44,939 nt of DNA from Actinomycetota bacterium (GCA_028695395.1 JAQVJB010000001.1:1-44939); one strand, 5' to 3'. Positions 1 to 33,985 are shown, counted from the stretch's first letter. Numbers and translations: made by a program. Notes: generated by a model not told the origin, from the letters alone.

Positions 1-158
1 TTCCATGGACTAATATATTAGCTTAAAAATACAATTAAATAAAGCTGGCTTTGCTTTGACTTTTAAAAACAATATTGCTATATATTAATTTTATTATTTT
101 TTTAGAAGTTGTTGAAATCACTTATCTAAAATTGTGGTTTCAGCCAGAGGATTTTATA

Positions 159-2036
159 TTGAAAAAAGATGTTTCAGTACTTACGGGGAATGAAGCAATT
201 GCCTTGGGGGCTCTTGAAGCCGGAGTCGGTTTTGCAAGCGCTTATCCAGGGACACCTTCCACGGAAATACTGGAAAATATTGCAAAGACAGGGGGGATTT
301 ACTGCCAGTGGTCGGTGAATGAAAAAGTTGCTTTGGAAGTTGCTTCAGGCGCCAGTCTTGCCGGCAATAGAGCTCTTGCGGCAATGAAGCATGTAGGCCT
401 TAATGTTGCTTCAGATCCTTTCATGACCCTTGCATACACCGGTGTCAATGGCGGTCTTGTCATAGTATCAGCAGATGATCCAGGAATGCATAGTTCCCAG
501 AATGAGCAGGACAACAGATATTATGCAAAAATGGCAAAAGTCCCTCTTCTGGAACCATCAGATAGCCAGGAATGCAAAGATTTTCTTATTAAAGCATTTG
601 AAATCAGTGAAGAATTTGACTTGCCGGTCCTGCTTAGAACCACAACAAGGATATCCCACTCCGGCTCACTTGTAGAAAAAGGAAAAATCAGGAAACACAA
701 GCCGGATAAAAAATATATAAAGGATCCCATGAAATATGTTATGATTCCTGCATTTGCCAGAACCAGGCATAAGATTCTTCTTGAAAAATTTGAAAGCCTT
801 AAAGAATTTTCAGAAAAAACCAGCATTAATAAAATCATATATGCTGAAGATAAAAGATTTTCAAAGATAGGAATAATTACCAGCGGAGTAAGCTACCAAT
901 ATGCGGCGGAGGCTTTAAATAAGTATCCTGTGCTGAAATTAGGAATGACAAACCCTCTTCCTTTTAATATGATAAAAAATTTTGCATGCGATAAATCTTT
1001 GATAATAGTTATTGAGGAGCTGGAACCATTCATAGAAGAACAGATAAAAGCATCAGGTATTTCCTGCATTATTATTGGAAAGTCTTTTTTTCCTGAATAT
1101 GGAGAACTCAATGGTGAAATAGTCAAAACTTTAAATGACTTTATATCAAGCGAAAAAATATTAGAAAATCTTTCCGCCTATACGTCAGAAGATATTGAAA
1201 AGAAAATAAAAGGTTTTAAAGAAAAAAAATCTAATTTAAATAAAGATAAAGAAAAAAATGAAATAAAATATTTTATTAAAAACAAAATTCCGCCAAGGCC
1301 TCCGGTTCTTTGTGCGGGATGCATGCACAGACCGGTTTTTCATATTTTAAAAAAACTGAAGGTCACTGTTATGGGAGATATAGGTTGTTATACTCTTTCA
1401 GCTTTGCCTCCGATTAGCAGTCTTGATACCTGTCTTTGCATGGGAGCAGGAGTCGGTCAGGCACTGGGAGCTGAAAAAGCAGATAGTTATTATAAGAATA
1501 AAGTAGTATCAGTTATAGGGGATTCCACTTTTTTCCATTCAGGGATAACATCGCTTATTGACAATGTCTTTAACAAAGGGACAGGACTTGTAATAATACT
1601 GGACAACAGAGTTACTGCCATGACCGGCCATCAGGCAAACCCAGGGATAGGCAAGACGCTTATGGGTGATAAAACGCATATGATCCTTCCGGAAAAGATA
1701 GCAGAAGCAGTAGGGGTGAAAAATATAAGAATAGTTGATCCATATGACATAAGCCTGCTTGATAAAACAATAAAGGAGGAATTAAAAAGAGAGGAATTAT
1801 CTGTTATTGTATGCAGACAGGAATGTGCGCTCATAAATAAGAAAAAAAGACTTAAAAAATTTTATATTGATGATTCAGCTTGCAAGCAGTGCGGACTATG
1901 CATGAAACTAGGATGTCCGGCAATTGAATTTAAAAACGATAAATATTTTATCAACCAGGCAATATGTACTGGCTGTGATGTCTGTTCCCAGATTTGCCCC
2001 TGGGATTCTATTAAAATAAATAATGAGAATAACTGA
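159..2036 (+). CDS. iorA: Indolepyruvate:ferredoxin oxidoreductase alpha subunit (IorA)
   Basis: Track ORF 75..2036. It has the IorA architecture: N-terminal LTGNEAIALGALEAGVGFASAYPGTPSTEI, TPP-binding region (GDIGCY ... GDSTFFHSG) and two C-terminal [4Fe-4S] ferredoxin motifs (CKQCGLCMKLGCP; CTGCDVCSQICP). iorB follows. Start moved to in-frame TTG 159 (AGAGGA at 146-151, 7-nt spacer). Residues from 75-158 look like non-coding read-through. Start is uncertain (132 or 159). Confidence 0.9.
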   Translation: MKKDVSVLTGNEAIALGALEAGVGFASAYPGTPSTEILENIAKTGGIYCQWSVNEKVALEVASGASLAGNRALAAMKHVGLNVASDPFMTLAYTGVNGGLVIVSADDPGMHSSQNEQDNRYYAKMAKVPLLEPSDSQECKDFLIKAFEISEEFDLPVLLRTTTRISHSGSLVEKGKIRKHKPDKKYIKDPMKYVMIPAFARTRHKILLEKFESLKEFSEKTSINKIIYAEDKRFSKIGIITSGVSYQYAAEALNKYPVLKLGMTNPLPFNMIKNFACDKSLIIVIEELEPFIEEQIKASGISCIIIGKSFFPEYGELNGEIVKTLNDFISSEKILENLSAYTSEDIEKKIKGFKEKKSNLNKDKEKNEIKYFIKNKIPPRPPVLCAGCMHRPVFHILKKLKVTVMGDIGCYTLSALPPISSLDTCLCMGAGVGQALGAEKADSYYKNKVVSVIGDSTFFHSGITSLIDNVFNKGTGLVIILDNRVTAMTGHQANPGIGKTLMGDKTHMILPEKIAEAVGVKNIRIVDPYDISLLDKTIKEELKREELSVIVCRQECALINKKKRLKKFYIDDSACKQCGLCMKLGCPAIEFKNDKYFINQAICTGCDVCSQICPWDSIKINNENN

Positions 2037-2661
2037 AAATAAAATAAATAAATATAAAGATAAATACGAAGCTCTTTTAAAAAAAGAGGAGACGATATCT
2101 GTTTTATTTGCAGGTGTTGGAGGGCAGGGAATACTTATGGCTACCGCCATAATGGCAAAGGCCTGCCTGTTTGAAGGTTTTGATGTAAAGGTTTCCGAAA
2201 TACACGGAATGGCACAAAGGGGAGGAAGTGTCGTAGGAAGCATAAGATTCGGCAAGAAGGTTTTTTCTCCTACTGTAGATTCTGCAGACTTCGTTGTTTC
2301 GCTTGAGGAAGTCGAACCATTAAGGTATATCGATATTTTTAAGGAAGATAGCATATTAATCTATAATACTTACAGAATTTATCCCTCAAGTGTTTATGGT
2401 GACGGGTATTCATATCCGGAAAATGTCAGACAGCTGCTTTTAAAATTTTCGGAGAATGTTTTTCCTATTGATGCATATAAAGTTGCAAAACAACACGGAA
2501 AAAGCAAGGCAATGAATACAGCTTTGCTGGGTTTTTTCTCAAATTTTCTTCCGATATCTGCCGATAGCTGGGAAGAGGCTATAAAGGATATTGTCTCACC
2601 GGCAGTTCTTGAAATTAATTTAAATACTTTTAAAGCAGGCAAAAGTATTATCTATCAATAA
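2023..2661 (+). CDS. iorB: Indolepyruvate:ferredoxin oxidoreductase beta subunit (IorB)
   Basis: LFAGVGGQGILMA and HGMAQRGGSV motifs of the PFOR-gamma-like IorB family. Overlaps the iorA stop by 14 nt, which suggests translational coupling. About 25 aa of Lys-rich N-terminal extension. Confidence 0.88.
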   Translation: MRITENKINKYKDKYEALLKKEETISVLFAGVGGQGILMATAIMAKACLFEGFDVKVSEIHGMAQRGGSVVGSIRFGKKVFSPTVDSADFVVSLEEVEPLRYIDIFKEDSILIYNTYRIYPSSVYGDGYSYPENVRQLLLKFSENVFPIDAYKVAKQHGKSKAMNTALLGFFSNFLPISADSWEEAIKDIVSPAVLEINLNTFKAGKSIIYQ

Positions 2662-2679
2662 TTTTTTAGGAGGTTTTAA

Positions 2680-3078
2680 ATGCCAATAAAACAATTAACT
2701 GTCTTTTTAGAGAACAAGCTTGGAAGACTGGCTGAGGTTACAAGGATTCTAAAAAGAGAAAATATTAATCTCCAGGGTTTTTCTACGACAGAGGCTAGAG
2801 ATTATGGTATTTTAAGGATAGTAGTATCTGATGTTGAAAAAGCAAGGGAGGCTTTAAAAAAAGCCGGTTTTACAACACATGTAGCTGATGCAATATGCAT
2901 AAGAGTAGAAGACCGTCCCGGCGAATTGCTGAATGTCCTTGATACTCTTTCGGATGCTAAAATAAACATAGACTATATTTATGTAATTGCAGGCACAAGA
3001 GTAATTCTTAGTGTCCCAGAGCTTGAAAGGGCTGAAAAGCTTCTGATTGAAAAGGGATTCTCTATTTGTGCGGATTAA
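2680..3078 (+). CDS. ACT-domain (amino-acid-binding) regulatory protein
   Basis: 132 aa made of two beta-alpha-beta-beta-alpha-beta-like halves (LTVFLENKLGRLAEVTRIL...; IRVEDRPGELLNVLDTLS...), typical of tandem small ACT proteins. AGGAGG RBS 7 nt upstream. Sits between iorB and paaK, as in many ior/paaK clusters. Confidence 0.8.
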   Translation: MPIKQLTVFLENKLGRLAEVTRILKRENINLQGFSTTEARDYGILRIVVSDVEKAREALKKAGFTTHVADAICIRVEDRPGELLNVLDTLSDAKINIDYIYVIAGTRVILSVPELERAEKLLIEKGFSICAD

Positions 3079-3147
3079 AACAATTTTAAAAAAAGCCTTA
3101 TATTTAAGAGGGAATAAACATTTAAATAAATTGGGTTAGGAATATAA

Positions 3148-4464
3148 ATGACATTAGGATTTTTAAATGAAAGTATTGAAACAGCAGATAAAAAAAGCAT
3201 TGAAAAAATGCAGACTGAAAGGCTGAAAAGTACTTTGATAAATGTCTATGAAAACGTATCATTTTATAAAAAAAGGTTGGATGACTGCGGCGTAGATCCA
3301 TATAATTTTAAAAATATTGACGAGCTTCAGAAAATACCTTTTACGACTAAGGAAGATTTGAGGCTGAATTATCCTTTTAATATGCTTGCACGTCCTTTTG
3401 GGGAAATTGTCAGGATACATTCATCTTCCGGGACTACAGGCAATCCTACGGTAGTGGCTTATACCGGAAGAGATATTGAAATTTGGGGTGAAGTAATAGC
3501 AAGACAGCTATTTTCCTTAAATTTGAGAAGAGGAGATATTTTTCAAAACAGTTATGGCTATGGTCTTTTTACCGGAGGTCTCGGCCTTCATTATGGAATC
3601 GAAAAACTTGGCGGTGTTGCCATACCTGTATCAGGCGGAAATACTGAAAGACAGATTAAAATAATGCAGGATTTCTTAACCGGAGTAATTTGCTGCACCC
3701 CTTCCTATGCATTGCATATTGCAGAAGTTGGAACAGAACTTGGAGTTGACTTTTCAAAGCTTGCCTTAAAAGCCGGTGTTTTAGGGGCGGAACCATGGAC
3801 AAACCAGATAAGAAGCGAAATAGAAAAAAGGCTTTCAATTAACGCATATGATATTTACGGACTTAGCGAAGTAATAGGCCCCGGAGTTTCCTGCGAGTGT
3901 TCTTTTAAAAAAGGGCTTCATGTTGCAGAAGATAATTTTATTGTTGAAACTATTGACCCTAAAACCGGAAAAAATGTGCCTGAAGCAAAAACAGGGGAGC
4001 TGGTTTTTACTACGATTACAAAGGAAGGGATGCCTGTAATAAGATACCGGACAAAGGATCTCTCAAATCTAATATATGAAAAATGTGAGTGCGGCAGGAC
4101 GCATGTAAGGATGAAAAAACCTATAGGAAGATCAGATGACATGCTTATAATAAGAGGCGTAAATGTATTCCCTTCTCAAATTGAAGAAGTCCTGATGAAT
4201 GTAAAAGAGATTGAGCCGCATTATCTTATTGTTGTTCAAAAAAAGAATTTTCTTGATTTTATAGAAGTATGGGTAGAAGTCCCTGAAAATATTTTTTCAG
4301 AAAAAATGAATACTCTTGAAATTTTCGAAGCATCCATTGAACATAAACTTTATTCAGCAATAGGGATAAGCATTGATGTAAAACTGAAAGAGCCCAAGAC
4401 TATAAAAAGAAGCGAAGGTAAAGCAAAAAGGGTTGTTGATATGAGAAGAGGGGAAAAACCTTAA
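3148..4464 (+). CDS. paaK: Phenylacetate--CoA ligase family (PaaK-type aryl-acetate adenylating enzyme)
   Basis: N-terminal LKSTLINVYENVSFYKKRL..., AMP-binding motif HSSSGTTGNPTV, YGLSE, and a C-terminal GRSDDMLIIRGVNVFPSQIE domain, all characteristic of PaaK. Confidence 0.88.
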   Translation: MTLGFLNESIETADKKSIEKMQTERLKSTLINVYENVSFYKKRLDDCGVDPYNFKNIDELQKIPFTTKEDLRLNYPFNMLARPFGEIVRIHSSSGTTGNPTVVAYTGRDIEIWGEVIARQLFSLNLRRGDIFQNSYGYGLFTGGLGLHYGIEKLGGVAIPVSGGNTERQIKIMQDFLTGVICCTPSYALHIAEVGTELGVDFSKLALKAGVLGAEPWTNQIRSEIEKRLSINAYDIYGLSEVIGPGVSCECSFKKGLHVAEDNFIVETIDPKTGKNVPEAKTGELVFTTITKEGMPVIRYRTKDLSNLIYEKCECGRTHVRMKKPIGRSDDMLIIRGVNVFPSQIEEVLMNVKEIEPHYLIVVQKKNFLDFIEVWVEVPENIFSEKMNTLEIFEASIEHKLYSAIGISIDVKLKEPKTIKRSEGKAKRVVDMRRGEKP

Positions 4465-4536
4465 AAGCAGTAAAAGTCATAAGAAAATAGAAAGCTAAAT
4501 AAGTAATTTAAAATAAAAGGATATTAAGATAATAAT

Positions 4537-5430
4537 TTGAAGAATCAAAATCTAATAATTTCTGAAGTTAATAAAATAATTTCTAAAGAAATAAAATTTC
4601 TTAATAGCTATTATAATTACGATTTGAAAAGATTTTGCTGCCCTGATTTATTTTATAGCCCGGCTTTTCTTGCTTTTTTTAATATTGAAGAGATACAGGA
4701 TTTCAAGATAGGCGAAAGCCATAAAGTAAATAATCATATTCATGAAAAAGAAAATATAGTACTATTTGATACTTATAAAATAATTAATCTTGTTGCCGGC
4801 ATAGAACTTCTTGTGATTGGATTAAAGATACATGCATCACAGGAAAGTATATTCAGAAAGACTTTCAGCAAATCGGAAGAGCCGGAAAAAATAATTGATA
4901 AAAATTATACTATAGAGCTTCTTTTTGGTGACATTTTTTATTCAAGAGCTATCTCTTACCTGATTAACTTTGACGATTTTATAATTTTTGACAACATATT
5001 AAGATCGATATTGTCAACTCATCAATCAAGGATAATTATTCATCAGAGAATAAAAGATATGTTTAATGACAGTAAAAATATTAAATGGTTTTTCAATGAA
5101 GGCTTTTCTCAGGTAAAAATGTTAAATGCATTATTGAAAGAAATATTATTTACGGGGTTAGGCGTATCAAATTTCGATGTTTCAGGGGAAAAAACAAAAG
5201 ATTTTCTTCTTATTATTGATAAGATAATTTTATTAAAGACATATGATGACTTGATTGATTATATCGGGCATTCATTACCGGGAACCTATATAAAAGATAA
5301 CTATAGTCCTGTAAATTACTTTAAAAAAGAAGCAATAGTCACGAAGAAAGTTTTGGAATTAAAAATAAATAAATTAAAACCTGAATGGATTAAAAAAAAT
5401 TTTTTGAAATTATTTTTTAAGTTTGCTTAA
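4537..5430 (+). CDS. Hypothetical protein; degenerate polyprenyl-synthase-like paralog lacking the first Asp-rich motif
   Basis: TTG start. By-eye alignment to the canonical synthase at 7287..8270: SPAFLAF ~ RPALFLI; AGIELLVIGLKIHASQES ~ AGIEILHTASLIHDDIID; LLFGDIFYSRAISYL ~ YAGDYLFTYAFYLL; KTYDDLIDY ~ QINDDLIDI. The second DDxxD is kept. The first is replaced by ASQES and the GGKRxRP basic motif is missing. The functional call is inference. Confidence 0.55.
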   Translation: MKNQNLIISEVNKIISKEIKFLNSYYNYDLKRFCCPDLFYSPAFLAFFNIEEIQDFKIGESHKVNNHIHEKENIVLFDTYKIINLVAGIELLVIGLKIHASQESIFRKTFSKSEEPEKIIDKNYTIELLFGDIFYSRAISYLINFDDFIIFDNILRSILSTHQSRIIIHQRIKDMFNDSKNIKWFFNEGFSQVKMLNALLKEILFTGLGVSNFDVSGEKTKDFLLIIDKIILLKTYDDLIDYIGHSLPGTYIKDNYSPVNYFKKEAIVTKKVLELKINKLKPEWIKKNFLKLFFKFA

Positions 5431-5527
5431 AAATTTATTATTAATTTTTTTGATATAACCGTTGATTTTTTATGCGATATACTGGAAAAATGAAAAAATC
5501 AATTAGTGGATTTATTGGTGAATCATA

Positions 5528-7252
5528 GTGATAAAAGCAGATCTTACATTATTGCATGCTCCAAGCGTATATGACTTCAGGGAAAAAAGTATTTTCTATG
5601 GTCCGATGAGCGACCTTGTTCCTTCATCACCGATATTTGAAATGTATCCCATAGGATTTCTTACATTGTCAAATTATCTTGAAAAGAGGGGGATCAGGGT
5701 AAGAATAATAAATCTTGCTTATCTTATGATGGATGACAAAGATTTTGATGCAGAAAGATTAATAAGCAAGATAAAGACAAAAGCTTTCGGGATAGATTTA
5801 CACTGGCTTCCGCACTGCCAGGGTTCAAACGAAATAGCAAAGATAATAAAGAAATACCATCCGGATGTCCCGGTTATTTTTGGGGGTTTTTCGTCGTCAT
5901 ATTTTTATAAAGAACTTATTGGTTTTAAGCATGTTGATTTTGTAGTGCGGGGGGACTCAGCTGAAGAACCTTTATATAGGCTGATGAGTGCAATTAAGAA
6001 TAACGATGATTATCTCCCCTTTATAAGGAAGATACCTAATCTTGTCTGGAAAGAGAAAGACGAGATACATGAAAATCCGATAAGCTGCATATCAAAGGAT
6101 CTTGGTGAAATTGATTTTGATTACAGAGTAATGTTTAAACAGGTTTTAAGATATAAAAGCCTTAAATCTATCATCCCTTTCAGCGACTGGCTGAATTATC
6201 CGGTTACGACAATCCCTATTATCAGGGGCTGCAATAAGAATTGTTCAGGCTGCGGCGGTTCAAAAAATGCCTTTGAACTTTTTGGCAAAAGAATCAAGCC
6301 TGCATTCCGGGACCCTGCAAAGCTTGTAGATGAAATCCTGATAACCCAGAGATATATTGATGCGCCCGTATTCATACTTGGAGATATGACTCAGGGTGGG
6401 AGAAGCTATCTTGAAGAATTTTTTATAAATACAAAAAGATTAAATAAAGATATCCAGATATTTTTTGAATTTTTTGAGCCTCCGGATGAATGGTTTTATG
6501 ACAAAATCGCAGATAATTTTAATAATTTTTGTTTTGAGATATCTCCGGATTCACATGATGAAAATATCAGGAAAAAGATGGGTAAAAATTTCAGCAATAA
6601 CCAGCTGATATCAAGCATTAAATATGCTCTTGAAAAAGGCGCCGGCAGATACGATCTTTATTTTATGACAGGATTGCCGACCCAGACTAAGGAATCAATA
6701 ATGCAGACCGTTGATTTCTGTGAAGAACTTTACGAAACGCTAGGCTGGGATAAAAGGTTTATGCCATTTGTTTCACCCATGGCTCCGTTTATAGACCCTG
6801 GAAGCAGGGCATTTGAAAATCCTGATGAATTTGGCTATGTGATAACAAGAAAGACTCTGTCAGAGCATATAGAAGCGATTACAAGACCTTCCTGGAAATA
6901 TATTCTTAATTATGAGAGCAAATTTTTATCAAGAGATGATATGGTGGAAGCTACTTATGACTGCGCCATAGGATTGAATGCTCTCAAGGGCAGAGCAGGA
7001 AGCATAAGCAAAAAATCAATGAAGGAAAATGAAGAAAGGATTATGTCCGCCAAACGCATTATGTCTGAAATAGACAAAATTGTAGCAGGCGATAAGGACT
7101 GGATGCACAGCAAGGATTTTGAAAATCTGAAAGATAAAGCAATGAAGTACAGCCTTTCAACAGTGTGCGACAAAAAAGAATTGGAATTTCCCTTAACGAA
7201 AAAAAATTTCAAATGGTTTTCGATAATAAAGACTGTTCTTTTTAACAGGTAG
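5528..7252 (+). CDS. Cobalamin-binding-domain (class B type) radical SAM protein
   Basis: GTG start with GGTGA RBS. N-terminal Rossmann-like B12-binding-type domain (YPIGFLTLSNYLEKRGIRVRIINL ... VIFGGFSSSYF ... VDFVVRGDSAEEPL), then the radical SAM cluster motif RGCNKNCSGCGGS (CX3CX2C). 574 aa. Confidence 0.85.
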   Translation: MIKADLTLLHAPSVYDFREKSIFYGPMSDLVPSSPIFEMYPIGFLTLSNYLEKRGIRVRIINLAYLMMDDKDFDAERLISKIKTKAFGIDLHWLPHCQGSNEIAKIIKKYHPDVPVIFGGFSSSYFYKELIGFKHVDFVVRGDSAEEPLYRLMSAIKNNDDYLPFIRKIPNLVWKEKDEIHENPISCISKDLGEIDFDYRVMFKQVLRYKSLKSIIPFSDWLNYPVTTIPIIRGCNKNCSGCGGSKNAFELFGKRIKPAFRDPAKLVDEILITQRYIDAPVFILGDMTQGGRSYLEEFFINTKRLNKDIQIFFEFFEPPDEWFYDKIADNFNNFCFEISPDSHDENIRKKMGKNFSNNQLISSIKYALEKGAGRYDLYFMTGLPTQTKESIMQTVDFCEELYETLGWDKRFMPFVSPMAPFIDPGSRAFENPDEFGYVITRKTLSEHIEAITRPSWKYILNYESKFLSRDDMVEATYDCAIGLNALKGRAGSISKKSMKENEERIMSAKRIMSEIDKIVAGDKDWMHSKDFENLKDKAMKYSLSTVCDKKELEFPLTKKNFKWFSIIKTVLFNR

Positions 7253-7286
7253 CAGCAAAATAAATCAGACAAATTAATTATTTATT

Positions 7287-8270
7287 ATGTTTAAGAATTT
7301 TAAAAAAACTCAGTTCTTAAAAAAAGATTTGGTCATTCTTGACGAATATATCAAATCTATTGTCAAAGATATGAGTGATATGCTAAGCGAAGTACTCGCA
7401 AGCCCTCTTTTGACTGGGGGAAAAAGGATAAGGCCGGCATTATTTTTAATCTGCGCTAAAAATGATAAATATGATATTGGCTATCTTTTACCTGCGGCAG
7501 CAGGGATTGAAATACTTCATACAGCTTCACTCATTCATGACGATATAATCGATAATTCTTTTTTAAGAAGGGGGAATAAGACCATTCATAATATATATGA
7601 TAAGGATACTGCAAGATATGCCGGGGATTATCTTTTTACCTATGCTTTCTACCTGCTGAACAGCTATTCTAATCATTTAATACATAAAGAGATGTCCAAT
7701 ACTTCACAAAGTCTTGTAATGGGGGAGTTTGACCAATTAAAGACTAAAAGTTTCCTGGAGCAGTCCGAAAAAGTTTATCTTGAAAAAATCAATGAAAAGA
7801 CTTCTTCCTTATTCAAGCTGAGCTGTGTTCTTGGCGGTATTTTATCTGGCTCAGAAGAAAAAGACATTGAGAATATGAGGAAGTTCGGAGGTTTTCTCGG
7901 CATGGCTTTCCAGATAAATGATGACCTGATAGATATAAATATAAACAAACCGGCTGATAAAGTAGGCAAACCAATAGGAAACGATGTAAGACAGGGCAAC
8001 ATAACGCTGCCTATCATATATGCATTAAGGGATAACAAAATCAATTCCGAAATAAAAAAACTACTAAAAAAGAAAGATTTTTCTGAAAATGATGCGGACA
8101 GGATATTAAAATTAATCAACGAATCTGAAGTTATTGAAATAGTAAGAAAAAAAGTATTTTATTATTTAATAGAAGCAAAGAGGATTGCCTCTGAAATAAA
8201 GGGCAGCGTAAGGCGAAACGGCCTGGTCGAAGTATGTGACTATCTTACGGGAACAATAGAAAGAAACTGA
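7287..8270 (+). CDS. trans-Polyprenyl diphosphate synthase (IspB/HepT/GGPPS family; chain length unknown)
   Basis: All canonical regions are present: GGKRIRP, first Asp-rich motif LIHDDIIDNS, GDYLF, KTSSLF, second Asp-rich motif FQINDDLIDI, and GKPIGNDVRQGNITLP. Confidence 0.9.
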   Translation: MFKNFKKTQFLKKDLVILDEYIKSIVKDMSDMLSEVLASPLLTGGKRIRPALFLICAKNDKYDIGYLLPAAAGIEILHTASLIHDDIIDNSFLRRGNKTIHNIYDKDTARYAGDYLFTYAFYLLNSYSNHLIHKEMSNTSQSLVMGEFDQLKTKSFLEQSEKVYLEKINEKTSSLFKLSCVLGGILSGSEEKDIENMRKFGGFLGMAFQINDDLIDININKPADKVGKPIGNDVRQGNITLPIIYALRDNKINSEIKKLLKKKDFSENDADRILKLINESEVIEIVRKKVFYYLIEAKRIASEIKGSVRRNGLVEVCDYLTGTIERN

Positions 8271-8296
8271 AAAAACTTATTATCAAAAGAGATTAA

Positions 8297-9262
8297 ATGA
8301 ATTTTTATTTTAAAACTTTTATTGATGTACTGAGTGTTACCATACCTATTTTTGTTGTAGTGGCGATAGGATATATTTTCAGGAAAACAGGTATAATTTC
8401 TGAAAAGGCAGTACCTGGCTTAAATAAGATAGCGTACTATCTTGGCCTGACGACTCTTATCTTCACAAGCATAGTAAAATATGATTTGAAAGAGATTTTT
8501 AATATCGGCATGGTTAAAACTCTTTATACTACTTTTGCAATTTTTATTGTCATTGTTTTTATCTCAGTTTATTTTCTTAAGGTTAAACGGAAGACAAAGG
8601 GAGCAATAGCTATATCCAGCTTCAGATGCAATATGGCATTCGTCGGGATACCGATTATCATATCTGCGTTCGGAGATATAGCCGGGGCAAAAAGCAGTAT
8701 AATCATCGGATTTATGACTCCTGTGAATATTATATTTTCAATAATATTTTTAAGGATTCTTGGAGGACAGGATAATGAAAGGAAAAAATACGGGAAACTT
8801 TTTCTAAGCTTTTTGAAAGATCCTTTAGTTATTGCAGCAGTTGCGGGTATGCTTATTTCTTATTTCAGCATTCCTCTGCCTAAGGCATTTCTTGATATTT
8901 TAAATATTCTTGCAGGACTTGCGATTCCTCTTGCTCTTATAACAATAGGCGCCTCCTTTAAGATTTCCCATATAAAACTTAATTTTAAATTTTTGATATT
9001 AGTTTCTTTACTTAAACTGATAATAGAACCCTTTATCGCATTTTTAGTAGGCAGATACATATATGCAATAAATTCTATAGACATAATCATAACTGTAATC
9101 TTATTTGGAATGCCTCTTGCTGTTGCGGCATATATTATGGGCAGAGAATATGATTCCGATTCTGATTTTATTTCATCGGCATTGATTTTTTCGACAATAA
9201 CTTCAGCACTGACAATAACTTTATGGCTTTTCTTTTTAAAGATATTTTTCAGAGTTGCTTAG
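8297..9262 (+). CDS. AEC (auxin efflux carrier) family permease
   Basis: About 10 predicted TM helices in two homologous halves. The N-terminus (LSVTIPIFVVVAIGYIFRKTGIISEKAVPGLNKI) and C-terminal half (PLVIAAVAGMLISYF...LALITIGASF) match the membrane-transport/AEC family pattern. Confidence 0.78.
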   Translation: MNFYFKTFIDVLSVTIPIFVVVAIGYIFRKTGIISEKAVPGLNKIAYYLGLTTLIFTSIVKYDLKEIFNIGMVKTLYTTFAIFIVIVFISVYFLKVKRKTKGAIAISSFRCNMAFVGIPIIISAFGDIAGAKSSIIIGFMTPVNIIFSIIFLRILGGQDNERKKYGKLFLSFLKDPLVIAAVAGMLISYFSIPLPKAFLDILNILAGLAIPLALITIGASFKISHIKLNFKFLILVSLLKLIIEPFIAFLVGRYIYAINSIDIIITVILFGMPLAVAAYIMGREYDSDSDFISSALIFSTITSALTITLWLFFLKIFFRVA

Positions 9263-9279: not shown

Positions 9280-11622
9280 TCAATACAGCATATTATAAAT
9301 ATAATAGCTTTCCATTACCTTCTTAATATAATTTTTTGTTTCATCATAAGTAATGCTTTCTATAAATTCATCTATATCCAGGCTTCCGTAGCTGTTTATC
9401 CATCTCTGCATTGCTCCGGGCCCACCGTTATAAGCTCCAAGAGCGTAATATTTGTTATTTCCGAAATTTTTTAACTGCTGTGAAATATAATAAGTTCCCA
9501 TCATTATGCTTTTTTCAGGATCGTGCAGCATACTATTATCAAAATTACTTATGCCCAGCTGACTGGCAATATTTTTTCCTGTCGCCGGCATTATCTGCAT
9601 AAGTCCCTGCGCTCCTGCATGTGAGCCTGCATCAGCTTTAAAGCGGGATTCTTCCCTTATTATTGCAAGAATAAAATTTTCATCTATCCCGTATGTATTA
9701 GCATACTTTTTAATATAATCTTTATAAGCAAAAGGATAAAAAAGATAATAGTAGTAATCTTTCTCTCTGCCTGTAAGCCCTGAAGACAATTTTTTATAAT
9801 TTCTTTGAACCAGAAGTATGGAGTTTTCGTAATCCTTGCTCTTTAGGTACATTGTTGATATTTCCAGGATTTTTGAAAGATTTGCATCTATTTCTTCACC
9901 TGAAGCTTCTACCTCTGAAGCGGCACTATCAAAAAATTCAATAAATAATAATTCTTTTGCTTTGTTTATATGAGTCGCTTCTTCTTTTGAAAGGACTATC
10001 TGCGGCTCAAGGTACCCATATATTTCAGGGATTACTTCTGATATTTCAGGATTTTCCGGATCAAGCTCTTTGTTTATTGCGGGAAAATCAACGTTTATCC
10101 CAAGATTCTTCAGTGCGTTTGCTGACTCGAAACCATAATATGAAAAGGAATTTACTGAAAATACACTCTTGTATCCTTCAATGGCTTCCTGCTTCCTTCC
10201 AAGTTTCTCAAGACTTTTGGTTTTCCAGAAAAGGCTTTTTTCTTCAAGGGACGTGCCTTTAAAATGCTTAGACATGGCATCGAAAGTATAAAGCGAGCTA
10301 TCGTACTCCTGAAGCCTGTACTGTATCCATCCAAGTTCCCAGTATGCATCTGATATTCTGTCACCTGAAGGATACTCGTCTATCATTCTCTGGTAATAAA
10401 ATGCGGCATTTTGAAGGTCGCCGGCTATATAGTGTATCCTTCCCGCCCTATAAAGGGAGTCATCTGCAAAATTGCTGGAAGGAAAAATTTCAATAAGTTT
10501 TTTATATATATTTATAGCTCCGTCATAATCATCCAGATTGGTCAGGCATCTTCCGAGATAATAGAGGCTATCGTCTGCCAGGTCTTTAACAGGATATTTA
10601 TCGTAGTTTTCCTGCAGGTAGTCTTTTGCTTTTTTATAATCATTCATGTTATAGAAACTCATACCTGTCCTGAAAAGGGTTTTGGAATAAATGTCCGGAT
10701 ATGATTTTTCCCAACTGCTGTTTTGAAGAATCTTATTAAAGGATTCAAGGGCAAGGTCGTAATAATAAATTTTAAAAAGCTTTTCCCCTCTTGAATACAA
10801 TTCTGCAACAGTAGGTTCAAACTGCGGAAGCCCTTCAATATTTGCAAGGCGGTTTAGATTATCAAATGAATAAATCGCATATTCTGTTTCCGGATACTCA
10901 AGAAATATTTTTTTGAATACTGAATATGCTTCTTCAAGCTTTTTATTTTTTTCCATGCATACTCCCTGCTGGAAAAAGCCATAAGGGGTTAAAGAGGAAT
11001 CAGGATATTCTTTTATATAAGCATTATATTCCTCCTCTGCAGCAACAAAATCTTCATCAAGGTAATATGAATCAGCCAGCTCAATAAGTGATTTCTCCCT
11101 GAATATGCTATCTTTGTAATTATTGATAATGAACTGATAATTTAACACGCTTAAATCATATTTTTCCTGGAGAAGCATGCTTTTTGCAATATAATACCTT
11201 ATATGGTCTTCAAGGATTAAATATTTTGATTTTATCTTCTCAAGATAGTACTGTGCTTTTATATATTCTTTTGCTTCAAATGCTTCCACTCCCAGGATGA
11301 AATAATGTCTTTGCGTTTCAATATCATTAATATCTCCGCTATCTTCAGGTTCATTGCTATTGAATATGATTGTAGTAGTTGTGGTATCTGCATTTATTAA
11401 TGTTGTCTGGGTGGTGCTGGCACTATCTGAATTGCTGGAAAGATTATCATTATTGATGCTGCTATCATTTTGCGGACTATCAGGAATTACCTGCGATTCT
11501 TCCTGGGAAGCGCTTAATTTATTTATTGTGCTGCATCCGGGTAATACCATCGATGAAATGGCAAAAATAAGTAAGAATAAAATAATTGAAATCTTTAATA
11601 TGACATATTTTTTTAAGTACAT
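9280..11622 (-). CDS. slt: Soluble lytic murein transglycosylase (Slt-like) with long TPR/superhelical N-terminal region
   Basis: C-terminal SLT domain with the catalytic Glu context AIIREESRFKADAGSHAGAQGLMQIMPATG and YNGGPG. Upstream are many TPR-like repeats. N-terminal signal peptide with a lipobox-like VLPGCS. The track ORF starts at TTG 11637. ATG 11622 (MYLKKYV...) gives a cleaner signal peptide. Confidence 0.85.
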   Translation of the reverse strand: MYLKKYVILKISIILFLLIFAISSMVLPGCSTINKLSASQEESQVIPDSPQNDSSINNDNLSSNSDSASTTQTTLINADTTTTTIIFNSNEPEDSGDINDIETQRHYFILGVEAFEAKEYIKAQYYLEKIKSKYLILEDHIRYYIAKSMLLQEKYDLSVLNYQFIINNYKDSIFREKSLIELADSYYLDEDFVAAEEEYNAYIKEYPDSSLTPYGFFQQGVCMEKNKKLEEAYSVFKKIFLEYPETEYAIYSFDNLNRLANIEGLPQFEPTVAELYSRGEKLFKIYYYDLALESFNKILQNSSWEKSYPDIYSKTLFRTGMSFYNMNDYKKAKDYLQENYDKYPVKDLADDSLYYLGRCLTNLDDYDGAINIYKKLIEIFPSSNFADDSLYRAGRIHYIAGDLQNAAFYYQRMIDEYPSGDRISDAYWELGWIQYRLQEYDSSLYTFDAMSKHFKGTSLEEKSLFWKTKSLEKLGRKQEAIEGYKSVFSVNSFSYYGFESANALKNLGINVDFPAINKELDPENPEISEVIPEIYGYLEPQIVLSKEEATHINKAKELLFIEFFDSAASEVEASGEEIDANLSKILEISTMYLKSKDYENSILLVQRNYKKLSSGLTGREKDYYYYLFYPFAYKDYIKKYANTYGIDENFILAIIREESRFKADAGSHAGAQGLMQIMPATGKNIASQLGISNFDNSMLHDPEKSIMMGTYYISQQLKNFGNNKYYALGAYNGGPGAMQRWINSYGSLDIDEFIESITYDETKNYIKKVMESYYIYNMLY

Positions 11623-16578: not shown

Positions 16579-18648
16579 TTGAAACTGATTATTAGCGAAA
16601 AAGAAATAGCGGCAAGAAGAATAGCACAGATTCTTTCAGACAATAATGCAAAAGAAGAAAAGGTATATAGCGTACCGGTTCATTCTTTTTCCTATAGAGG
16701 TACAGACTTCAAATCCATAGGCCTGAAGGGGCATATACTTCAGGTTGAGTTTCCCCCCGAGTACACGAACTGGATAAAAGTACCCCCGCAGGAACTTATT
16801 GATGCCAGCCTTGAGAAGAAGCCGATTGAAAAAAGAATAATCCAGGCTTTGAATAAAATTTCAGCAGATGCGGAAAGCATAATAATCGCAACTGACTTTG
16901 ACAGGGAAGGAGAATTAATAGGTTATGATGCCTATGACCTTCTAAGAAATAAATATGGAGAGATACCTGTTAAGAGGGCGAGATTTTCTGCGATAACGCA
17001 AAAAGATATAAATAATGCTTTTTCAAACTTGGAGAAGCTTGATTTAAACCTTGCTTTTGCAGGAATGGCCAGGCAGGATATAGATCTGATATGGGGGGCT
17101 GTCCTTACCAGGTTTATTTCACTTTCATCATTCCAGCTGCGGGAAAAATTTCTTTCAGTGGGAAGGGTGCAGACACCTACCCTTGCAATTCTGGTTGAAA
17201 GAGAACTGGAGATAAAAAATTTTATTTCTGTACCTTACTGGCAGATAAAAACAGTACTCAAGAACCGTAATGGAGAAAAATTTGATTCTTTTTATTACAA
17301 AAAGAAGATACTGGATGAAAATGAAGCGCAGAAGATATTTGAGAAAATCAAAGATAAAGGCACTGTTTCATCTATAAAAGAAGTTAACAGAGCCATAAAG
17401 CCGCCGACGCCTCTAAACACTACGGCGCTTATAGTTGCAGCAAGCTCTATAGGGTTTTCTGCACAAAAAACAATAAATATAGCAGAAAATCTTTATATAA
17501 ACGGTTTTATTAGCTATCCAAGGACAGATAATACCGTGTATCCTTCATCAATTGATTTAAAGGAAACTGTTTTAAATCTGAAAAGTAATAATGATTTCAG
17601 CAATATGATAGAGGCTGTTATCTCCCAAAAAAATTTAAAGCCGACCAGGGGTGCAAGGAAAACCACCGATCATCCGCCGATTTACCCCGTATCAGCAGCA
17701 AATAAAAATGAATTAAGAGATGATGAGTGGAAGCTATATGAGCTTATAGCCAGAAGATTTGCCTGCACTCTTTTGCCTGAAGCATCGGTAAAGAATATGG
17801 CAGTAAATATTGATATAAACGGTTTGAAATTTATTGCAAACGGTTCGACAATGCTTAGTGAAGGATGGACAAAGTTTTATCCTTATTACAAACATATTGA
17901 AATTTCCTTGCCGGATATTAAACAAGATGAAGAGCTTGAGGTATTCAAAAAAGAAATAAATGCTAAAAAAACAAAACCACCGGCAAGATATACCCAGGGA
18001 AGGCTTGTAGAGAAAATGGAAGAAGCAAATCTGGGAACAAAGGCAACAAGGCATTCTATCATACAGAATCTTATAAGCAGGGGATATGTAAAAGGTAATC
18101 CTCTTGAAGCTACAAACAAAGCAATTGCAGTGATAAGTGCTTTGAAGGATTATGCATCAAGGATTACAACTCCGGAAATGACATCTGAACTTGAAACAGA
18201 TATGGATGCTATAGCCAAAGGTGAATTTAAAAAGGCAGAAGTCGTTGATATATCAAGAAATAGGCTAAGAGAAATAATGAAAATCCTTATTGACAAGAAA
18301 AAGGAAATAGGAAAAGCAATAAAGGATGGAATAAAGGATGACGAAATAGTAGGCAAGTGCCAGTCCCCGGACTGTGACGGCAATCTTATAATAAGGGTAT
18401 CAAATAAAACAAGGAAAAAATTCATAGGCTGTTCGAATTACCCTAAATGTACCCAGTCTTTTTCAATGCCGCAGAACGGTCTTGTGCTGACCACTGATTC
18501 TGTTTGCAAGACCTGCAGCTTTCCTATAATAAGGATAATAAGAAAAGGAAGAAAACCCTGGGATTTATGTATAAATCCGGAGTGCCCGTCAAAAAATGAA
18601 AATTATAAAAATAACAAAAATAAAAAGTCAGATAAAAAAACTGATTAA
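16579..18648 (+). CDS. topA: Type IA DNA topoisomerase (Topo III / archaeal-TopA-like) with two C-terminal zinc ribbons
   Basis: TTG start with AAGGGGA RBS. TOPRIM motifs LIISEKEIAARRIA and IIIATDFDREGE. Active-site tyrosine context GFISYPRTDN. C-terminal C4 motifs CQSPDCDGN...CSNYPKC and CKTCSF...CINPECP. Confidence 0.9.
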   Translation: MKLIISEKEIAARRIAQILSDNNAKEEKVYSVPVHSFSYRGTDFKSIGLKGHILQVEFPPEYTNWIKVPPQELIDASLEKKPIEKRIIQALNKISADAESIIIATDFDREGELIGYDAYDLLRNKYGEIPVKRARFSAITQKDINNAFSNLEKLDLNLAFAGMARQDIDLIWGAVLTRFISLSSFQLREKFLSVGRVQTPTLAILVERELEIKNFISVPYWQIKTVLKNRNGEKFDSFYYKKKILDENEAQKIFEKIKDKGTVSSIKEVNRAIKPPTPLNTTALIVAASSIGFSAQKTINIAENLYINGFISYPRTDNTVYPSSIDLKETVLNLKSNNDFSNMIEAVISQKNLKPTRGARKTTDHPPIYPVSAANKNELRDDEWKLYELIARRFACTLLPEASVKNMAVNIDINGLKFIANGSTMLSEGWTKFYPYYKHIEISLPDIKQDEELEVFKKEINAKKTKPPARYTQGRLVEKMEEANLGTKATRHSIIQNLISRGYVKGNPLEATNKAIAVISALKDYASRITTPEMTSELETDMDAIAKGEFKKAEVVDISRNRLREIMKILIDKKKEIGKAIKDGIKDDEIVGKCQSPDCDGNLIIRVSNKTRKKFIGCSNYPKCTQSFSMPQNGLVLTTDSVCKTCSFPIIRIIRKGRKPWDLCINPECPSKNENYKNNKNKKSDKKTD

Positions 18649-19456
18649 AACAGCAAGTTTTAATCTACCCCAGGATATTATCGAATCTATTATGCAGGCT
18701 TGTTCTGCTGAAAAAAATATTACTGCCAGAAAAATACTTAAACTCATTTTAAAGAATTCAGAAACTGCTGCAAAAAAGAAGATACCGCTATGCCAGGACT
18801 GTGGAAGTGTTTATATAGATATCCTTATTGGAGACAATGTCTGTATAGAAAATTTTTCACTTTTGCAGGATTTGGCAGACCAGGCAGTTTCAGAAGCATA
18901 CGCTGAGAATTATTTGCGCAAATCTATTGTCTCCGACCCTCTTTTCAGAAGAGCAAATACAAATGAAAATACGCCGGCTTATTTAAGCGTATTGCCTGTT
19001 TGCGGTTTGCAAGGTCTTGAGATAAATATATCCCTGAAAGGGGGCGGAAGTGAAAATTGTACATTCCTTTATACCCTAAATCCTTCAGACGGGAAAGATT
19101 TAATAATCAATCATGTTGTCGAAGCAGTAAGAAAAAATGTAACAAAAGCGTGCCCTCCAGTAATTATAGGGATAGGTATTGGAGCAACATCCTCTAAAGT
19201 AAGTGAACTTGCGAGGAAAGCTGCTTTTAGGAATCTTAAATTACGAAATAGCGACGAAAAGTATAAAGCTCTGGAAAATATTATTCTTGAGAAGGTAAAT
19301 AAAACCGGTATAGGTCCTTCAGGCCTGGGTGGAATTACTACTGCCCTTGCTGTAAATATAGAATACATGCCTTGCCATATGGCTACATTACCGGTAGCTG
19401 TATCATTTGCATGTCACTCTCTCCGAAGGGCAAGTTCAAAAATATTGTTTCCCTGA
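18596..19456 (+). CDS. Fe-S type hydro-lyase (class I fumarate hydratase / tartrate dehydratase) alpha subunit
   Basis: PLCQDCGSVYIDI (CQDTG-like cluster motif), SLKGGGSEN, IIGIGIGATS and a C-terminal PVAVSFACHSLRRA, as expected for the about 280-aa alpha subunit. The start overlaps the topA 3-prime end by 53 nt. Confidence 0.85.
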   Translation: MKIIKITKIKSQIKKLIKTASFNLPQDIIESIMQACSAEKNITARKILKLILKNSETAAKKKIPLCQDCGSVYIDILIGDNVCIENFSLLQDLADQAVSEAYAENYLRKSIVSDPLFRRANTNENTPAYLSVLPVCGLQGLEINISLKGGGSENCTFLYTLNPSDGKDLIINHVVEAVRKNVTKACPPVIIGIGIGATSSKVSELARKAAFRNLKLRNSDEKYKALENIILEKVNKTGIGPSGLGGITTALAVNIEYMPCHMATLPVAVSFACHSLRRASSKILFP

Positions 19457-19959
19457 AGGTCGTAAGCTACAAAAAGAGGGAAATCTTTGATTTCAATTTC
19501 AAAAAGAGCTTCAGGTCCAAGGTCATGATATGCAATCTCTTTTATCTCTTTTATCTTAGAAGCCAGAATAGCAGAAATGCCGCCTGGGGCAATAAAATAA
19601 ATGCATTTATATCTTTTAAGCAACTCTCTTGCATATCTGCTTCTGTCACCCTTTCCTATGATTCCCTTTAGCCCTTTTTTTAACAGGGGCTCGGTCAAAT
19701 TGTCCATTCTTGCACTTGTAGTAGGGCCTACAGCTCCGCTTTTTCTTCCTGGTGGAACAGGAGAAGGACCTACATAAAAAATCACTGAGCCGTTTAGTTC
19801 AAATGGAAGATTTTCATTATTTTCTATGCTCTTGATGATTTTTTTATGAGCAGCATCTCTTGCACCATATATAATGCCGCTTAAAAGAATCTCATCTCCA
19901 GCTTTTAGAGAGAGGATATTTTTTTCCGTTAAGGGTGTTTTAAGTTTAAACTGGGTCAT
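19414..19959 (-). CDS. Fe-S type hydro-lyase (class I fumarate hydratase / tartrate dehydratase) beta subunit
   Basis: LSGIIYGARDAAHKKI, GPTTSARMD and IGKGDRS motifs of the beta subunit. 181 aa. Convergent with the alpha-subunit gene and overlapping it by 43 nt. Confidence 0.85.
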   Translation of the reverse strand: MTQFKLKTPLTEKNILSLKAGDEILLSGIIYGARDAAHKKIIKSIENNENLPFELNGSVIFYVGPSPVPPGRKSGAVGPTTSARMDNLTEPLLKKGLKGIIGKGDRSRYARELLKRYKCIYFIAPGGISAILASKIKEIKEIAYHDLGPEALFEIEIKDFPLFVAYDLQGNNIFELALRRE

Positions 19960-23793: not shown

Positions 23794-23869
23794 GCCGATG
23801 TAGCTCAACTGGCAGAGCAACTCATTCGTAATGAGTAGGTTACCGGTTCAATTCCGGTCATCGGCTCCA
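23794..23869 (+). tRNA. tRNA-Thr (anticodon CGU), CCA encoded
   Basis: Manual cloverleaf fold. Acceptor GCCGATG/CATCGGC is a perfect 7 bp. D arm GCTC-AACTGGCA-GAGC. Anticodon arm ACTCA-TTCGTAA-TGAGT places CGT at positions 34-36. Variable loop AGGTT. T arm ACCGG-TTCAATT-CCGGT. Discriminator T, then CCA. Confidence 0.93.
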
Positions 23870-25703: not shown

Positions 25704-27029
25704 ATGCTTTTACCACTTACAGTAAGAAAAAATAATTTAGATCATCTTGAAATAGGCGGTATTGATTTTAAGAAGCTTGCTGAAAAATATGACACTCCTC
25801 TTTACGTAGTGGATATCAAAACTGTTCAGAATCAATGCAGGGATTATATTAAAAATTTCATAAATGATATTTTTGATACCGAAATCATATATGCTTCCAA
25901 GGCTTTTAACTGTATTGCCATGTGCCAGCTTATAAATTCAGAGGGATTGTCCATAGATGTATCCACAGGGGGCGAATTATTTATTGCTTTAAAGAGCGGA
26001 TTTAAACCTTCAAAGATATATTTTCACGGAAATAATAAATCAGAGAAGGAAATAGAATTCGGAGTTGCTGAAAAAGTCGGTTGTTTTATTGTTGATAATT
26101 TTGAAGAAATAGATATTCTTGATAAAATTGCAGCCCAAAAAGGTGTCATACAAAAGATAATGATCAGGATAACTCCGGGCATACATGCTTCCACTCATGA
26201 ATATATCCAGACAGGCAAGGAAAAATCCAAATTCGGATTTAATGTCAATGGCGGTGTTGCCATGGAAGCTGTGAAAAAAATAATCACTAAAAAAAATCTA
26301 AAGCTTTCAGGAATTCATTCCCATATAGGTTCCCAGATATTTAATATCGAGCCATATGAAAAACTTGTTTCAGTGCAGTTAAATTTTATATCCCGGGTGC
26401 TTAAAGAGACAGGGCATCTTATGGATGAAATAAATATAGGTGGCGGTCTTGGAGTAAAGTATCTGAAGGACGACAATACGTCTTCAATCGCTGAATTTGC
26501 CGAGCTTGTAAAAAATTCTGTTTCAAAATATGCTTCAAAATATAATGTCAAAATAAAAAAACTAATGCTTGAACCAGGCAGGTCGATAATCGGCAATGCG
26601 GGTATTGCAATATATAGAATAGGAGTAAAAAAGCAAATCCCGGGCGTGCATAATTATATTTCAGTTGACGGGGGAATGAGTGATAATATAAGGCCTGTTC
26701 TTTACGGGGCAAAATACAGTTTGTTTGTTGCCAATAAAATGAGCATAATGGAAGAATCAGATGATAATCAGAAATGGGAAAAATATACTATTGTAGGCAA
26801 GCACTGCGAAAGCGGTGATATTCTTATAGAGGAAATATCTTTGCCTGATCTTGAGGTTGGAGACTATATTGTGCTCCCGACAACAGGAGCTTACTGTTTT
26901 TCAATGTCAAGCAATTATAATGGCCAGCCGCGTCCTGCAGTGATAGCGGTCAGCGATAAGAAGGAGCAGGTCTGGATTGTGCGTGAAAGTTATGAAGATT
27001 TAATTAAAAATCATAAGAAGTTGGTTTGA
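25704..27029 (+). CDS. lysA: Diaminopimelate decarboxylase
   Basis: PLP-lysine context YASKAF, TPLYVVD, HSHIGSQI, GGGLGV, EPGRSI and CESGD motifs of group IV decarboxylases (LysA). Confidence 0.92.
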   Translation: MLLPLTVRKNNLDHLEIGGIDFKKLAEKYDTPLYVVDIKTVQNQCRDYIKNFINDIFDTEIIYASKAFNCIAMCQLINSEGLSIDVSTGGELFIALKSGFKPSKIYFHGNNKSEKEIEFGVAEKVGCFIVDNFEEIDILDKIAAQKGVIQKIMIRITPGIHASTHEYIQTGKEKSKFGFNVNGGVAMEAVKKIITKKNLKLSGIHSHIGSQIFNIEPYEKLVSVQLNFISRVLKETGHLMDEINIGGGLGVKYLKDDNTSSIAEFAELVKNSVSKYASKYNVKIKKLMLEPGRSIIGNAGIAIYRIGVKKQIPGVHNYISVDGGMSDNIRPVLYGAKYSLFVANKMSIMEESDDNQKWEKYTIVGKHCESGDILIEEISLPDLEVGDYIVLPTTGAYCFSMSSNYNGQPRPAVIAVSDKKEQVWIVRESYEDLIKNHKKLV

Positions 27030-33349: not shown

Positions 33350-33504
33350 TCTGTCTCCGTTTAAAAGTGCCAAATTACACGCTCCCGTTTACAAAAGCAT
33401 AATATTGTGATAATATACTTTTCACTTGATTTCAAAAAAGAATCAGGTATATAGTCGCTCTTTTAAATATATTTAAAGTCGTTGAACAGGAATAGTAAGC
33501 ATTA

Positions 33505-33872
33505 AGCGGCAAAGAGAGAGTCACTGATGGTGTGAATGTGGCTGCGCAGCTGGTGTCTGAATGGGTCTGTGAGATGCCTGGCAGAACTCCGGAAATCTAC
33601 TTGGAGTGATTGAACAGGAAAGTAAACCAGGACGGCTTCCTCCGTTATCATAGGATAGGGTATGTGAGTACCTGAAAAGAGCACTGGCTTAATTGTTTTC
33701 ATTGATGCTTCTTTGGAAGCGATAGATTGTATAATCATTAAGCAGTGAAGTAGAGTGGCACCGCGGGAATCAAAACCTCTCGTCTCTACATTTTCTCTCT
33801 TTTTTCAGCTATTTTTTTCTTATATTTTAGTTGGAAAAAGCGGGATTATTGTAAGATGAAAGAGGTTTTTTT
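33505..33872 (+). promoter_or_regulatory. T-box leader, tryptophan-specific (specifier UGG)
   Basis: AGAGAG GA-motif at 33512-33520. Stem I helix AGUCAC (33519-24)/GUGAUU (33606-11). Specifier loop ends ...CUACU-UGG-A, with UGG at 33602-33604. F-box CCGUUA at 33642-47. Antiterminator at 33750-33789: A1 GUAGAG/CUCUAC, 7-nt bulge UGGCACC, A2 GCGGGA/UCUCGU. Competing arm AAACCUCU (33773-80)/AGAGGUUU (33861-68), followed by a U7 run that begins within that arm (33866-33872). Confidence 0.85.
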
Positions 33873-33985
33873 ATTTCCGGGTGCTTTTTCTTTGGCCGGA
33901 ATATAAATAAAATCCAGAAGAAAAATTTATTATTACCTGGGCATCTCTTTCAAAAATATTAAAAAAACTTATGAAAGGAAAAAAA

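Follow-up and report, generated by a model that had tools for sequence, protein, structure and literature searches.

A cobalamin-type radical SAM gene between a degenerate prenyl-synthase paralog and a HepT-like synthase gene in an Actinomycetota bacterium, a possible variant of the menaquinone side-chain operon

The subject of this report is a cassette of three genes in a stretch of DNA of 44,939 nucleotides (nt) from an uncultured anaerobic bacterium of the Actinomycetota (GCA_028695395.1 JAQVJB010000001.1:1-44939), a stretch that is referred to in its entirety as the window. It is low in G+C (~30-40% in 2-kb windows) and the nearest named relative of its organism is Candidatus Humimicrobium oleiphilum UBA1414. 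The cassette lies on the + strand and consists of a degenerate prenyl-synthase paralog presumed to be a small or regulatory subunit (open reading frame 1, ORF1, locus tag PHU65_00025; 4537-5430, 297 amino acids (aa), TTG start), a predicted class-B radical S-adenosylmethionine (SAM) enzyme of the family TIGR04190 (5528-7252, 574 aa, GTG start) and a HepT-like trans-prenyl diphosphate synthase (7287-8270, 327 aa); a gene for an AEC/Mem_trans permease follows on the same strand (8297-9262, 321 aa, PF03547 98.7 bits). The three ORFs had been described in an earlier reading made from the sequence alone, hereafter the sequence-only reading, and their coordinates, spacings (97 and 34 nt) and motifs are all present as it gave them. 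From the gene for a PaaK-like ligase that precedes ORF1 through to the permease gene the successive gaps are 72, 97, 34 and 26 nt, no terminator-like hairpins were found in them, and an Rfam scan of the window placed no RNA element, riboswitches included, near the cassette, the only matches being a T-box and a tRNA, both of which lie elsewhere. As set out below, the cassette may be a variant of the menaquinone side-chain operon in which a quinone-modifying radical SAM enzyme has a place between the two synthase-type genes.

The third gene is, as judged from its sequence, an intact catalytic HepT-like synthase of medium or long chain length. It matches PF00348 with 206.7 bits (cut-off 27) and carries GGKRIRP at residue 44, DDIID at residue 85 and DDLID at residue 212. 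The best NCBIfam models are those for HepT (TIGR02748, 243.3 bits) and for the hexaprenyl diphosphate synthase large subunit (198 bits), both of them large subunits of heteromeric synthases, with the octaprenyl and the farnesyl or geranylgeranyl diphosphate synthase models scoring lower. It falls under every equivalog cut-off (243.3 against 456.55 bits for HepT), which is why it is named HepT-like here and is assigned no chain length. By the chain-length rules, small residues before the first DDxxD are the mark of long-chain enzymes; here the small residues A and S stand at positions -5 and -4 (HTASLIHDDIID; HTASLIHDD), and a medium- or long-chain product is thus indicated.

ORF1 is far more divergent. 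No Pfam or NCBIfam model matched it at E<=0.1, and as HepS (PF07307) gave no match either it was ruled out as a classical HepS; only 29 relatives were found among 5.8 billion proteins, and every one of these is labelled hypothetical. The GGKRxRP motif and the first DDxxD are missing from ORF1, which retains GDIFYSRA at residue 131 as the counterpart of the GDxLxxxA region of the synthases. An alignment of 23 sequences shows LLFGD(I/V)FYSRA to be an invariant motif of the family and contains no conserved DDxxD. The window's copy does have DDLID at residue 237, but this motif is not kept across the family. An AlphaFold 2 (AF2) model built from the same alignment has a predicted local distance difference test score (pLDDT) of 83 and a predicted template modelling score (pTM) of 0.85, and when it was compared with the PDB by Foldseek the top 50 matches were all trans-prenyl diphosphate synthases (TMq 0.5-0.6), among them Staphylococcus aureus HepPPS 5h9d, Micrococcus luteus HexB 3aqb_D and the Bacillus subtilis heptaprenyl synthase 9kp1_B, together with chains of the inactive rice recruiting protein (OsGRP). 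ORF1 therefore combines a predicted prenyl-synthase fold with the loss of the Asp-rich motifs, and is of the kind referred to here as a D-less paralog. Clearer examples, of 190-280 aa, are encoded upstream of the radical SAM gene in five loci from other lineages (L030, L048, L079, L084 and L086). These small paralogs align with the ORF1 family (hhalign, probability 84%, E 7e-6) and with HepT (probability 95-99.8%, E 3e-22), and have lost both Asp-rich motifs. The description of ORF1 as a degenerate synthase paralog in the sequence-only reading is thereby borne out, by the modelled fold and by a profile homology that runs through these intermediates.

The G+C content of ORF1 is 25.7%, against 32-37% in its neighbours, and across related genomes it is only 26% identical where the radical SAM protein is 63% and HepT 53% identical, a divergence about twice that of either. 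Both the AT-richness and the fast divergence are consistent with a non-catalytic role, and ORF1 is most likely the non-catalytic partner of the HepT-like synthase in a putative heteromer, as analogy with known systems and the conserved adjacency of the two genes suggest. A synthase fold without Asp-rich motifs is shared with Dlp1 of Schizosaccharomyces pombe and human PDSS2, the small subunit of plant geranyl diphosphate synthase (GPPS), the rice recruiting protein for geranylgeranyl diphosphate synthase (5xn6) and HexA of M. luteus, although a direct relationship of ORF1 to any of these is not detectable at the sequence level. The sequence-only reading had drawn its comparison with the plant GPPS small subunit; its idea of an inactive paralog holds, whereas the closer analogues are D-less partners of synthases that make quinone side chains, such as HepS/HexA of Firmicutes or Dlp1/PDSS2 of eukaryotes. 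On sequence grounds the ORF1-type D-less HepT paralogs would constitute a new family of inactive prenyl-synthase partner subunits.

The gene between the two encodes a protein that is predicted, from its domains, motif and modelled fold, to be a class-B (cobalamin-type) radical SAM enzyme of the family TIGR04190 (B12_SAM_Ta0216). It scores 632.3 bits against an equivalog cut-off of 500, with residues 5-542 aligned to positions 1-533 of the 554 in the model, and contains a B12-binding domain (PF02310, residues 37-145) followed by a radical SAM domain (PF04055, residues 229-398) in which the CX3CX2C motif reads CNKNCSGC at residue 235. The invariant cysteines in the family are limited to C235, C239, C242 and C547, a pattern that points to one cluster only, without the signature of a SPASM domain or of auxiliary clusters. 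An exhaustive search at E<=1e-30 gave ~355 clusters at 50% identity, and more than 100 residues are invariant across members that are 45-83% identical, which argues for one conserved activity. The AF2 model (pLDDT 88) is matched best in Foldseek by TsrM (E 7e-16), TokK, MgmA and CysS and then by OxsB (E to 3e-12), with AprD4 also found. The sequence identity of TsrM, TokK, CysS and MgmA to the protein is just 12-18%, and no sequence relative was found in the PDB even with a profile. The protein lacks a DxHxxG motif, as do the structurally characterised class-B enzymes.

Characterised B12 radical SAM families score only 20-60 bits against the protein, with cut-offs of 360-650. Membership of BzaD (58.7 bits, cut-off 450), BchE (49, 481), PhpK (39.8, 600), HpnR (34.8, 650) and HpnJ (22.1, 578) was ruled out on these scores, and the B12-type enzyme described in the sequence-only reading lies outside every characterised clade. 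It does not belong with the class-C enzymes MenK and MqnK, as it has a B12 domain and HemN-family models give 11.8 (HemW) to 14.8 bits (ChuW/HutW). A Tes, GDGT-MAS or Mss type of synthase was likewise ruled out: the auxiliary-cluster cysteines are missing, there is no sequence match in the PDB, the fold is of class B and not of the SPASM type, and GDGT-MAS (MJ0619) is absent from the top 50 structural matches. Mss homologues have been reported in Humimicrobiia (preprint). A search for publications on TIGR04190 or Ta0216, on class-B radical SAM enzymes with menaquinone, or on Humimicrobiia with menaquinone found no relevant paper. Two further members of the family carry additional C-terminal domains, TatC in P0262 (814 aa) and PGA_cap in P0274 (1060 aa), each of which is either a fusion or a read-through gene call.

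The genomic context of the family was surveyed by scanning one genome per species, which gave relatives in 539 genomes, and 80 loci were examined. Amongst these are 31 Humimicrobiia-like loci (Group A) in which the radical SAM protein is 57-83% identical to that of the window and the order paaK, small subunit, radical SAM, hepT, AEC is kept, the small subunit being present in 26 of the 28 that have upstream sequence. That the same order is found across related genomes means that the clustering is not due to chance, and the three genes do form a conserved cassette as had been proposed. The AEC gene stands directly after hepT in 24 of the 26 loci that extend beyond hepT, often with an overlap of 4-13 nt between stop and start codons; the suggestion that the permease belongs to the same unit was therefore well founded within this lineage, where it would appear to be a lineage-specific fourth member. 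The 708-kb contig of L083 has radical SAM, hepT and AEC genes and neither paaK nor ORF1, so that radical SAM, hepT and AEC can be regarded as the stable core. The L083 radical SAM gene (9658-11404) is frameshifted near 9956-9966, through either a sequencing error or its being a pseudogene, and the hepT and AEC genes downstream of it are intact. The sequence-only reading had staked itself on three outcomes and was upheld on each, in that the trio is conserved, the radical SAM enzyme falls in no characterised non-isoprenoid clade such as BchE and ORF1 has a predicted prenyl-synthase fold.

In other lineages the radical SAM gene keeps different company. In 29 loci from high-GC actinobacterial or "Coriobacteriia" metagenome-assembled genomes (MAGs), where the protein is 45-50% identical to that of the window (Group B), a MenG/UbiE gene begins within a few nt after the radical SAM gene and scores 243-250 bits against TIGR01934 MenG_MenH_UbiE (cut-off 158); the gene after it encodes an amidohydrolase of the MtaD, 5'-deoxyadenosine-deaminase or aminofutalosine-deaminase type. 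The five loci with clear D-less paralogs follow the order small paralog, radical SAM, (MenG), hepT, (amidohydrolase): L079 has the small paralog, then after an interval radical SAM, MenG and hepT, L084 has the small paralog, a radical SAM::MenG fusion and hepT, and in L030 there is an adjoining MenJ-like reductase gene. In L087, furthermore, the gene that directly precedes that for the radical SAM protein encodes a MenA-like UbiA prenyltransferase. Four proteins are fusions of a complete TIGR04190 module with a complete MenG/UbiE module, namely P0188 (839 aa), P0192 (858 aa), P0261 (826 aa) and P0277 (893 aa). These are mutually only 38-57% identical over their full length, and P0188 is found on contigs from two samples with hepT and then the amidohydrolase gene downstream; it would seem unlikely that they are assembly artefacts, and they provide a Rosetta-stone signal of one shared pathway.

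Directly upstream of the radical SAM gene in most Group B loci, and in L060 and L086, are genes for large multihaem c-type cytochromes (Paired_CXXCH, with MtrC/MtrF-like hints), and L086 has in addition a NiFe hydrogenase with a cytochrome b subunit downstream; the cytochromes and this hydrogenase suggest a respiratory gene island. A second B12 radical SAM gene, 21% identical, was observed in the actinobacterial MAG locus L031 (1733-3208, - strand), where it lies divergently beside the TIGR04190 gene. An enoyl-CoA hydratase gene that adjoins the radical SAM gene in Syntrophaceae was considered as a MenB and ruled out, its best models being of the PaaG or crotonase type.

The hepS-menH(menG)-hepT operon of B. 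subtilis (gerCA-CB-CC) encodes a heteromeric heptaprenyl diphosphate synthase together with demethylmenaquinone methyltransferase. The cassette in the window resembles it in having, in order, a putative non-catalytic small subunit, an enzyme that is here predicted to be of the methyl-transfer type and a HepT-like large subunit. The remark in the sequence-only reading that it knew of no described bacterial system with all three elements is thus superseded, since the architecture matches that of the Bacillus operon with a radical SAM gene in the methyltransferase slot. It differs from that operon in that the middle gene encodes a 574-aa cobalamin-type radical SAM protein and not a SAM-dependent MenG, in that the small subunit is a full-length D-less HepT paralog and not a PF07307 HepS, and in that a permease gene is appended. 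No MenG/UbiE gene was found between or beside the synthase subunits in the window, which makes the cassette a variant of the hepS-menG-hepT type and not a strict member of it.

HepT, MenA-like and MenG proteins act in late steps of menaquinone biosynthesis (side-chain synthesis, prenylation and final C-methylation respectively), and with such neighbours the cassette is read here as a version of the menaquinone side-chain operon peculiar to its lineage. We give even odds to this broader explanation, a variant of that operon with a quinone-modifying radical SAM enzyme. The product of 7287-8270 would be the catalytic subunit that makes a medium- or long-chain tail, with ORF1 paired to it as a non-catalytic partner, and the TIGR04190 enzyme would act at the last stage of menaquinone assembly on a prenylated naphthoquinone or naphthoquinol. 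That its substrate in the window's organism is menaquinone or an immediate precursor is likely in view of the adjacency and fusion of its relatives to MenG, HepT and MenA-like genes. As to the chemistry, the most economical proposal, given a fold of class B and the identity of its nearest structural relatives, is C-methylation mediated by cobalamin; it would yield a methylmenaquinone-type quinone and would be additional to the C-2 methylation carried out by MenG. This specific reaction on the naphthoquinone is put forward tentatively, with somewhat less confidence than the operon itself. The site methylated by TsrM, the top structural match, is an aromatic sp2 carbon, a kind of position that the naphthoquinone ring also offers, and the window enzyme has the same domain order and single CX3CX2C cluster as TsrM, TokK, CysS, MgmA and HpnP/HpnR, from all of which it differs in belonging to its own family (HpnR, for example, scores 35 bits against 650). 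Its proposed job, an extra C-methylation of menaquinone in anaerobes that gives a lower-potential quinone, is that of MenK, MqnK and MenK2, which are class-C, HemN-like proteins, whereas the window enzyme has a B12-binding Rossmann domain and a radical SAM core. The corresponding claim for the family, that TIGR04190 is a previously unrecognised class-B radical SAM family of menaquinone biosynthesis, introducing an extra methyl group or some other radical modification and accompanied by a family of D-less HepT partners, is possible though we would rate it below an even chance.

A number of observations weigh against the menaquinone reading. Its link to menaquinone is seen in relatives and not in the window's own lineage, and neither the window (45 kb) nor its homologous locus L081 (21 kb) was found to contain a men, mqn, ubiE or ubiA gene. 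A recurrent partner is lacking in Group C, which comprises 19 of the 80 loci (Thermodesulfobacteriota, Chloroflexota, KSB1 and one archaeon), and the neighbours in L088 and in the deeper clades of 35-37% identity (L090, L091) are uninformative on quinones; the genes found in such loci include those for SelA, Rho, a pseudouridine synthase and ribosomal proteins. A direct profile comparison of ORF1 with the HepT family is weak (E 0.039, with a sensible register), so that their relationship, as far as the sequences go, would be a transitive one via the D-less intermediates and no direct link stands alone. Class-B enzymes also perform chemistry other than methylation, as in OxsB, BchE, GrsA/B and ThnL. 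Finally, the experimentally known menaquinone ring C-methylases, MenK, MqnK and MenK2, are all class-C, HemN-like enzymes, in part according to work cited in PMC8065906.

A rival explanation, along the lines of the sequence-only reading, is that the radical SAM enzyme modifies the polyprenyl product, or a non-quinone isoprenoid lipid made from it, by methylation, cyclisation or C-C coupling, and that the AEC protein would handle the product. In the lineage of the window itself the conserved partners are limited to the prenyl synthase pair and the permease, with no quinone gene nearby, and the majority of radical SAM enzymes that modify lipids have isoprenoid chains as their substrates, several of them being of the B12 type (HpnP/R, GrsA/B and Gmm; PMC13459092). 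Against this, an ortholog under the same equivalog model is fused or translationally coupled to MenG, or lies beside a MenA-like prenyltransferase gene, in other lineages, models for HpnR, HpnJ and the ladderane-lipid radical SAM enzyme give 22-35 bits against cut-offs of 360-650, and neither Tes/Mss-like auxiliary-cluster cysteines nor any similarity to GDGT-MAS in the PDB was found. The substrate of the enzyme is more likely to be menaquinone or its immediate precursor and probably not a free polyprenyl lipid of the hopanoid or tetraether type. We regard a polyprenyl or non-quinone lipid product as unlikely, although it would regain weight if Humimicrobiia prove to be without a naphthoquinone pathway.

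Slightly less probable again is that the enzyme does belong to the menaquinone pathway and carries out something other than methylation, such as a radical rearrangement, cyclisation or saturation of the side chain, or replacement of a late futalosine-pathway step (such as decarboxylation of the prenylated 6-carboxy-naphthoquinol). The genomic linkage accommodates this just as well, OxsB and AprD4, which are B12 radical SAM proteins that are not methylases, are among the structural matches, and in the fusions methylation is already provided by the MenG domain. The nearest structural matches (TsrM, TokK, MgmA and CysS) are nevertheless all methylases, we know of no menaquinone variant in these taxa that needs such a step, and decarboxylation of the UbiD/UbiX type needs no anoxic substitute. 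The uninformative neighbourhoods of 19 loci among the 80 and of the deeper clades, and the AT-rich, fast-evolving sequence of ORF1, might suggest that the radical SAM enzyme is an unrelated housekeeping protein that is merely syntenic, and ORF1 a decaying functionless duplicate. This is improbable given that in separate lineages the radical SAM gene adjoins late menaquinone genes of three different kinds, that four divergent fusions to MenG occur, that 26 of the 28 loci with upstream sequence keep ORF1 intact and its motif of 11 residues invariant, and that clearer D-less paralogs occupy the same position in five non-Humimicrobiia loci.

The cassette and permease gene are the last four in a row of eight genes on the + strand (75 to 9262). 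The first four, identified by domain matches, are iorA (75-2036), iorB (2023-2661), a gene for an ACT-domain protein (2680-3078) and that for the PaaK-like ligase (3148-4464), and they point to aromatic 2-oxoacid and arylacetate metabolism. Humimicrobiia-like loci keep them syntenic with the cassette throughout, in many cases with paaK in two copies; in L083 and in every non-Humimicrobiia locus this synteny is missing. A functional link between these genes and the cassette, or a role of the AEC protein as an arylacetate exporter, was set aside because the synteny is confined to Humimicrobiia and the AEC gene is kept in L083 without paaK. The iorA-iorB-ACT-paaK-like genes are probably outside the module and only syntenic with it, and may be co-transcribed with it.

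Elsewhere in the window the two Rfam matches are a tRNA (23794-23866) and a T-box leader (33473-33790, + strand; 96 bits against a gathering score of 93), the latter upstream of a gene for a pyridoxal-phosphate-dependent (PALP) enzyme of 460 aa (33971-35353). The parts of a two-subunit class I fumarate hydratase are encoded on opposite strands, alpha (Fumerase) at 18596-19456 (+) and beta (Fumerase_C) at 19414-19959 (-), and the two genes share 43 nt at their 3' ends; as a rule the genes for these subunits are co-directional neighbours. Two consecutive ORFs of 441 aa each are found at 25704-27029 and 27031-28356 (+), the first of them an Orn/DAP/Arg decarboxylase and the second without annotation.

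In anaerobic respiration the redox potential of the chain is determined by menaquinone and its methylated derivatives, and to our knowledge the only enzymes known to over-methylate menaquinone are class-C radical SAM proteins. If TIGR04190 does have the proposed role in menaquinone biosynthesis, it would represent another route, of independent evolutionary origin, to low-potential quinones resembling methylmenaquinone, spanning anaerobic Actinomycetota, Chloroflexota, Thermodesulfobacteriota and Thermoplasmata-type archaea; Thermoplasma, from which the family takes its name, has thermoplasmaquinone in its published quinone profile. The family has been catalogued without an assigned function, and comparison of genomes now suggests a specific and testable role for it. 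The D-less partner family, annotated as hypothetical so far, matters for predicting quinone tail synthesis from genomes, and the cassette as a whole could lead to a previously undescribed quinone or biosynthetic step in subsurface lineages that are abundant and uncultured.

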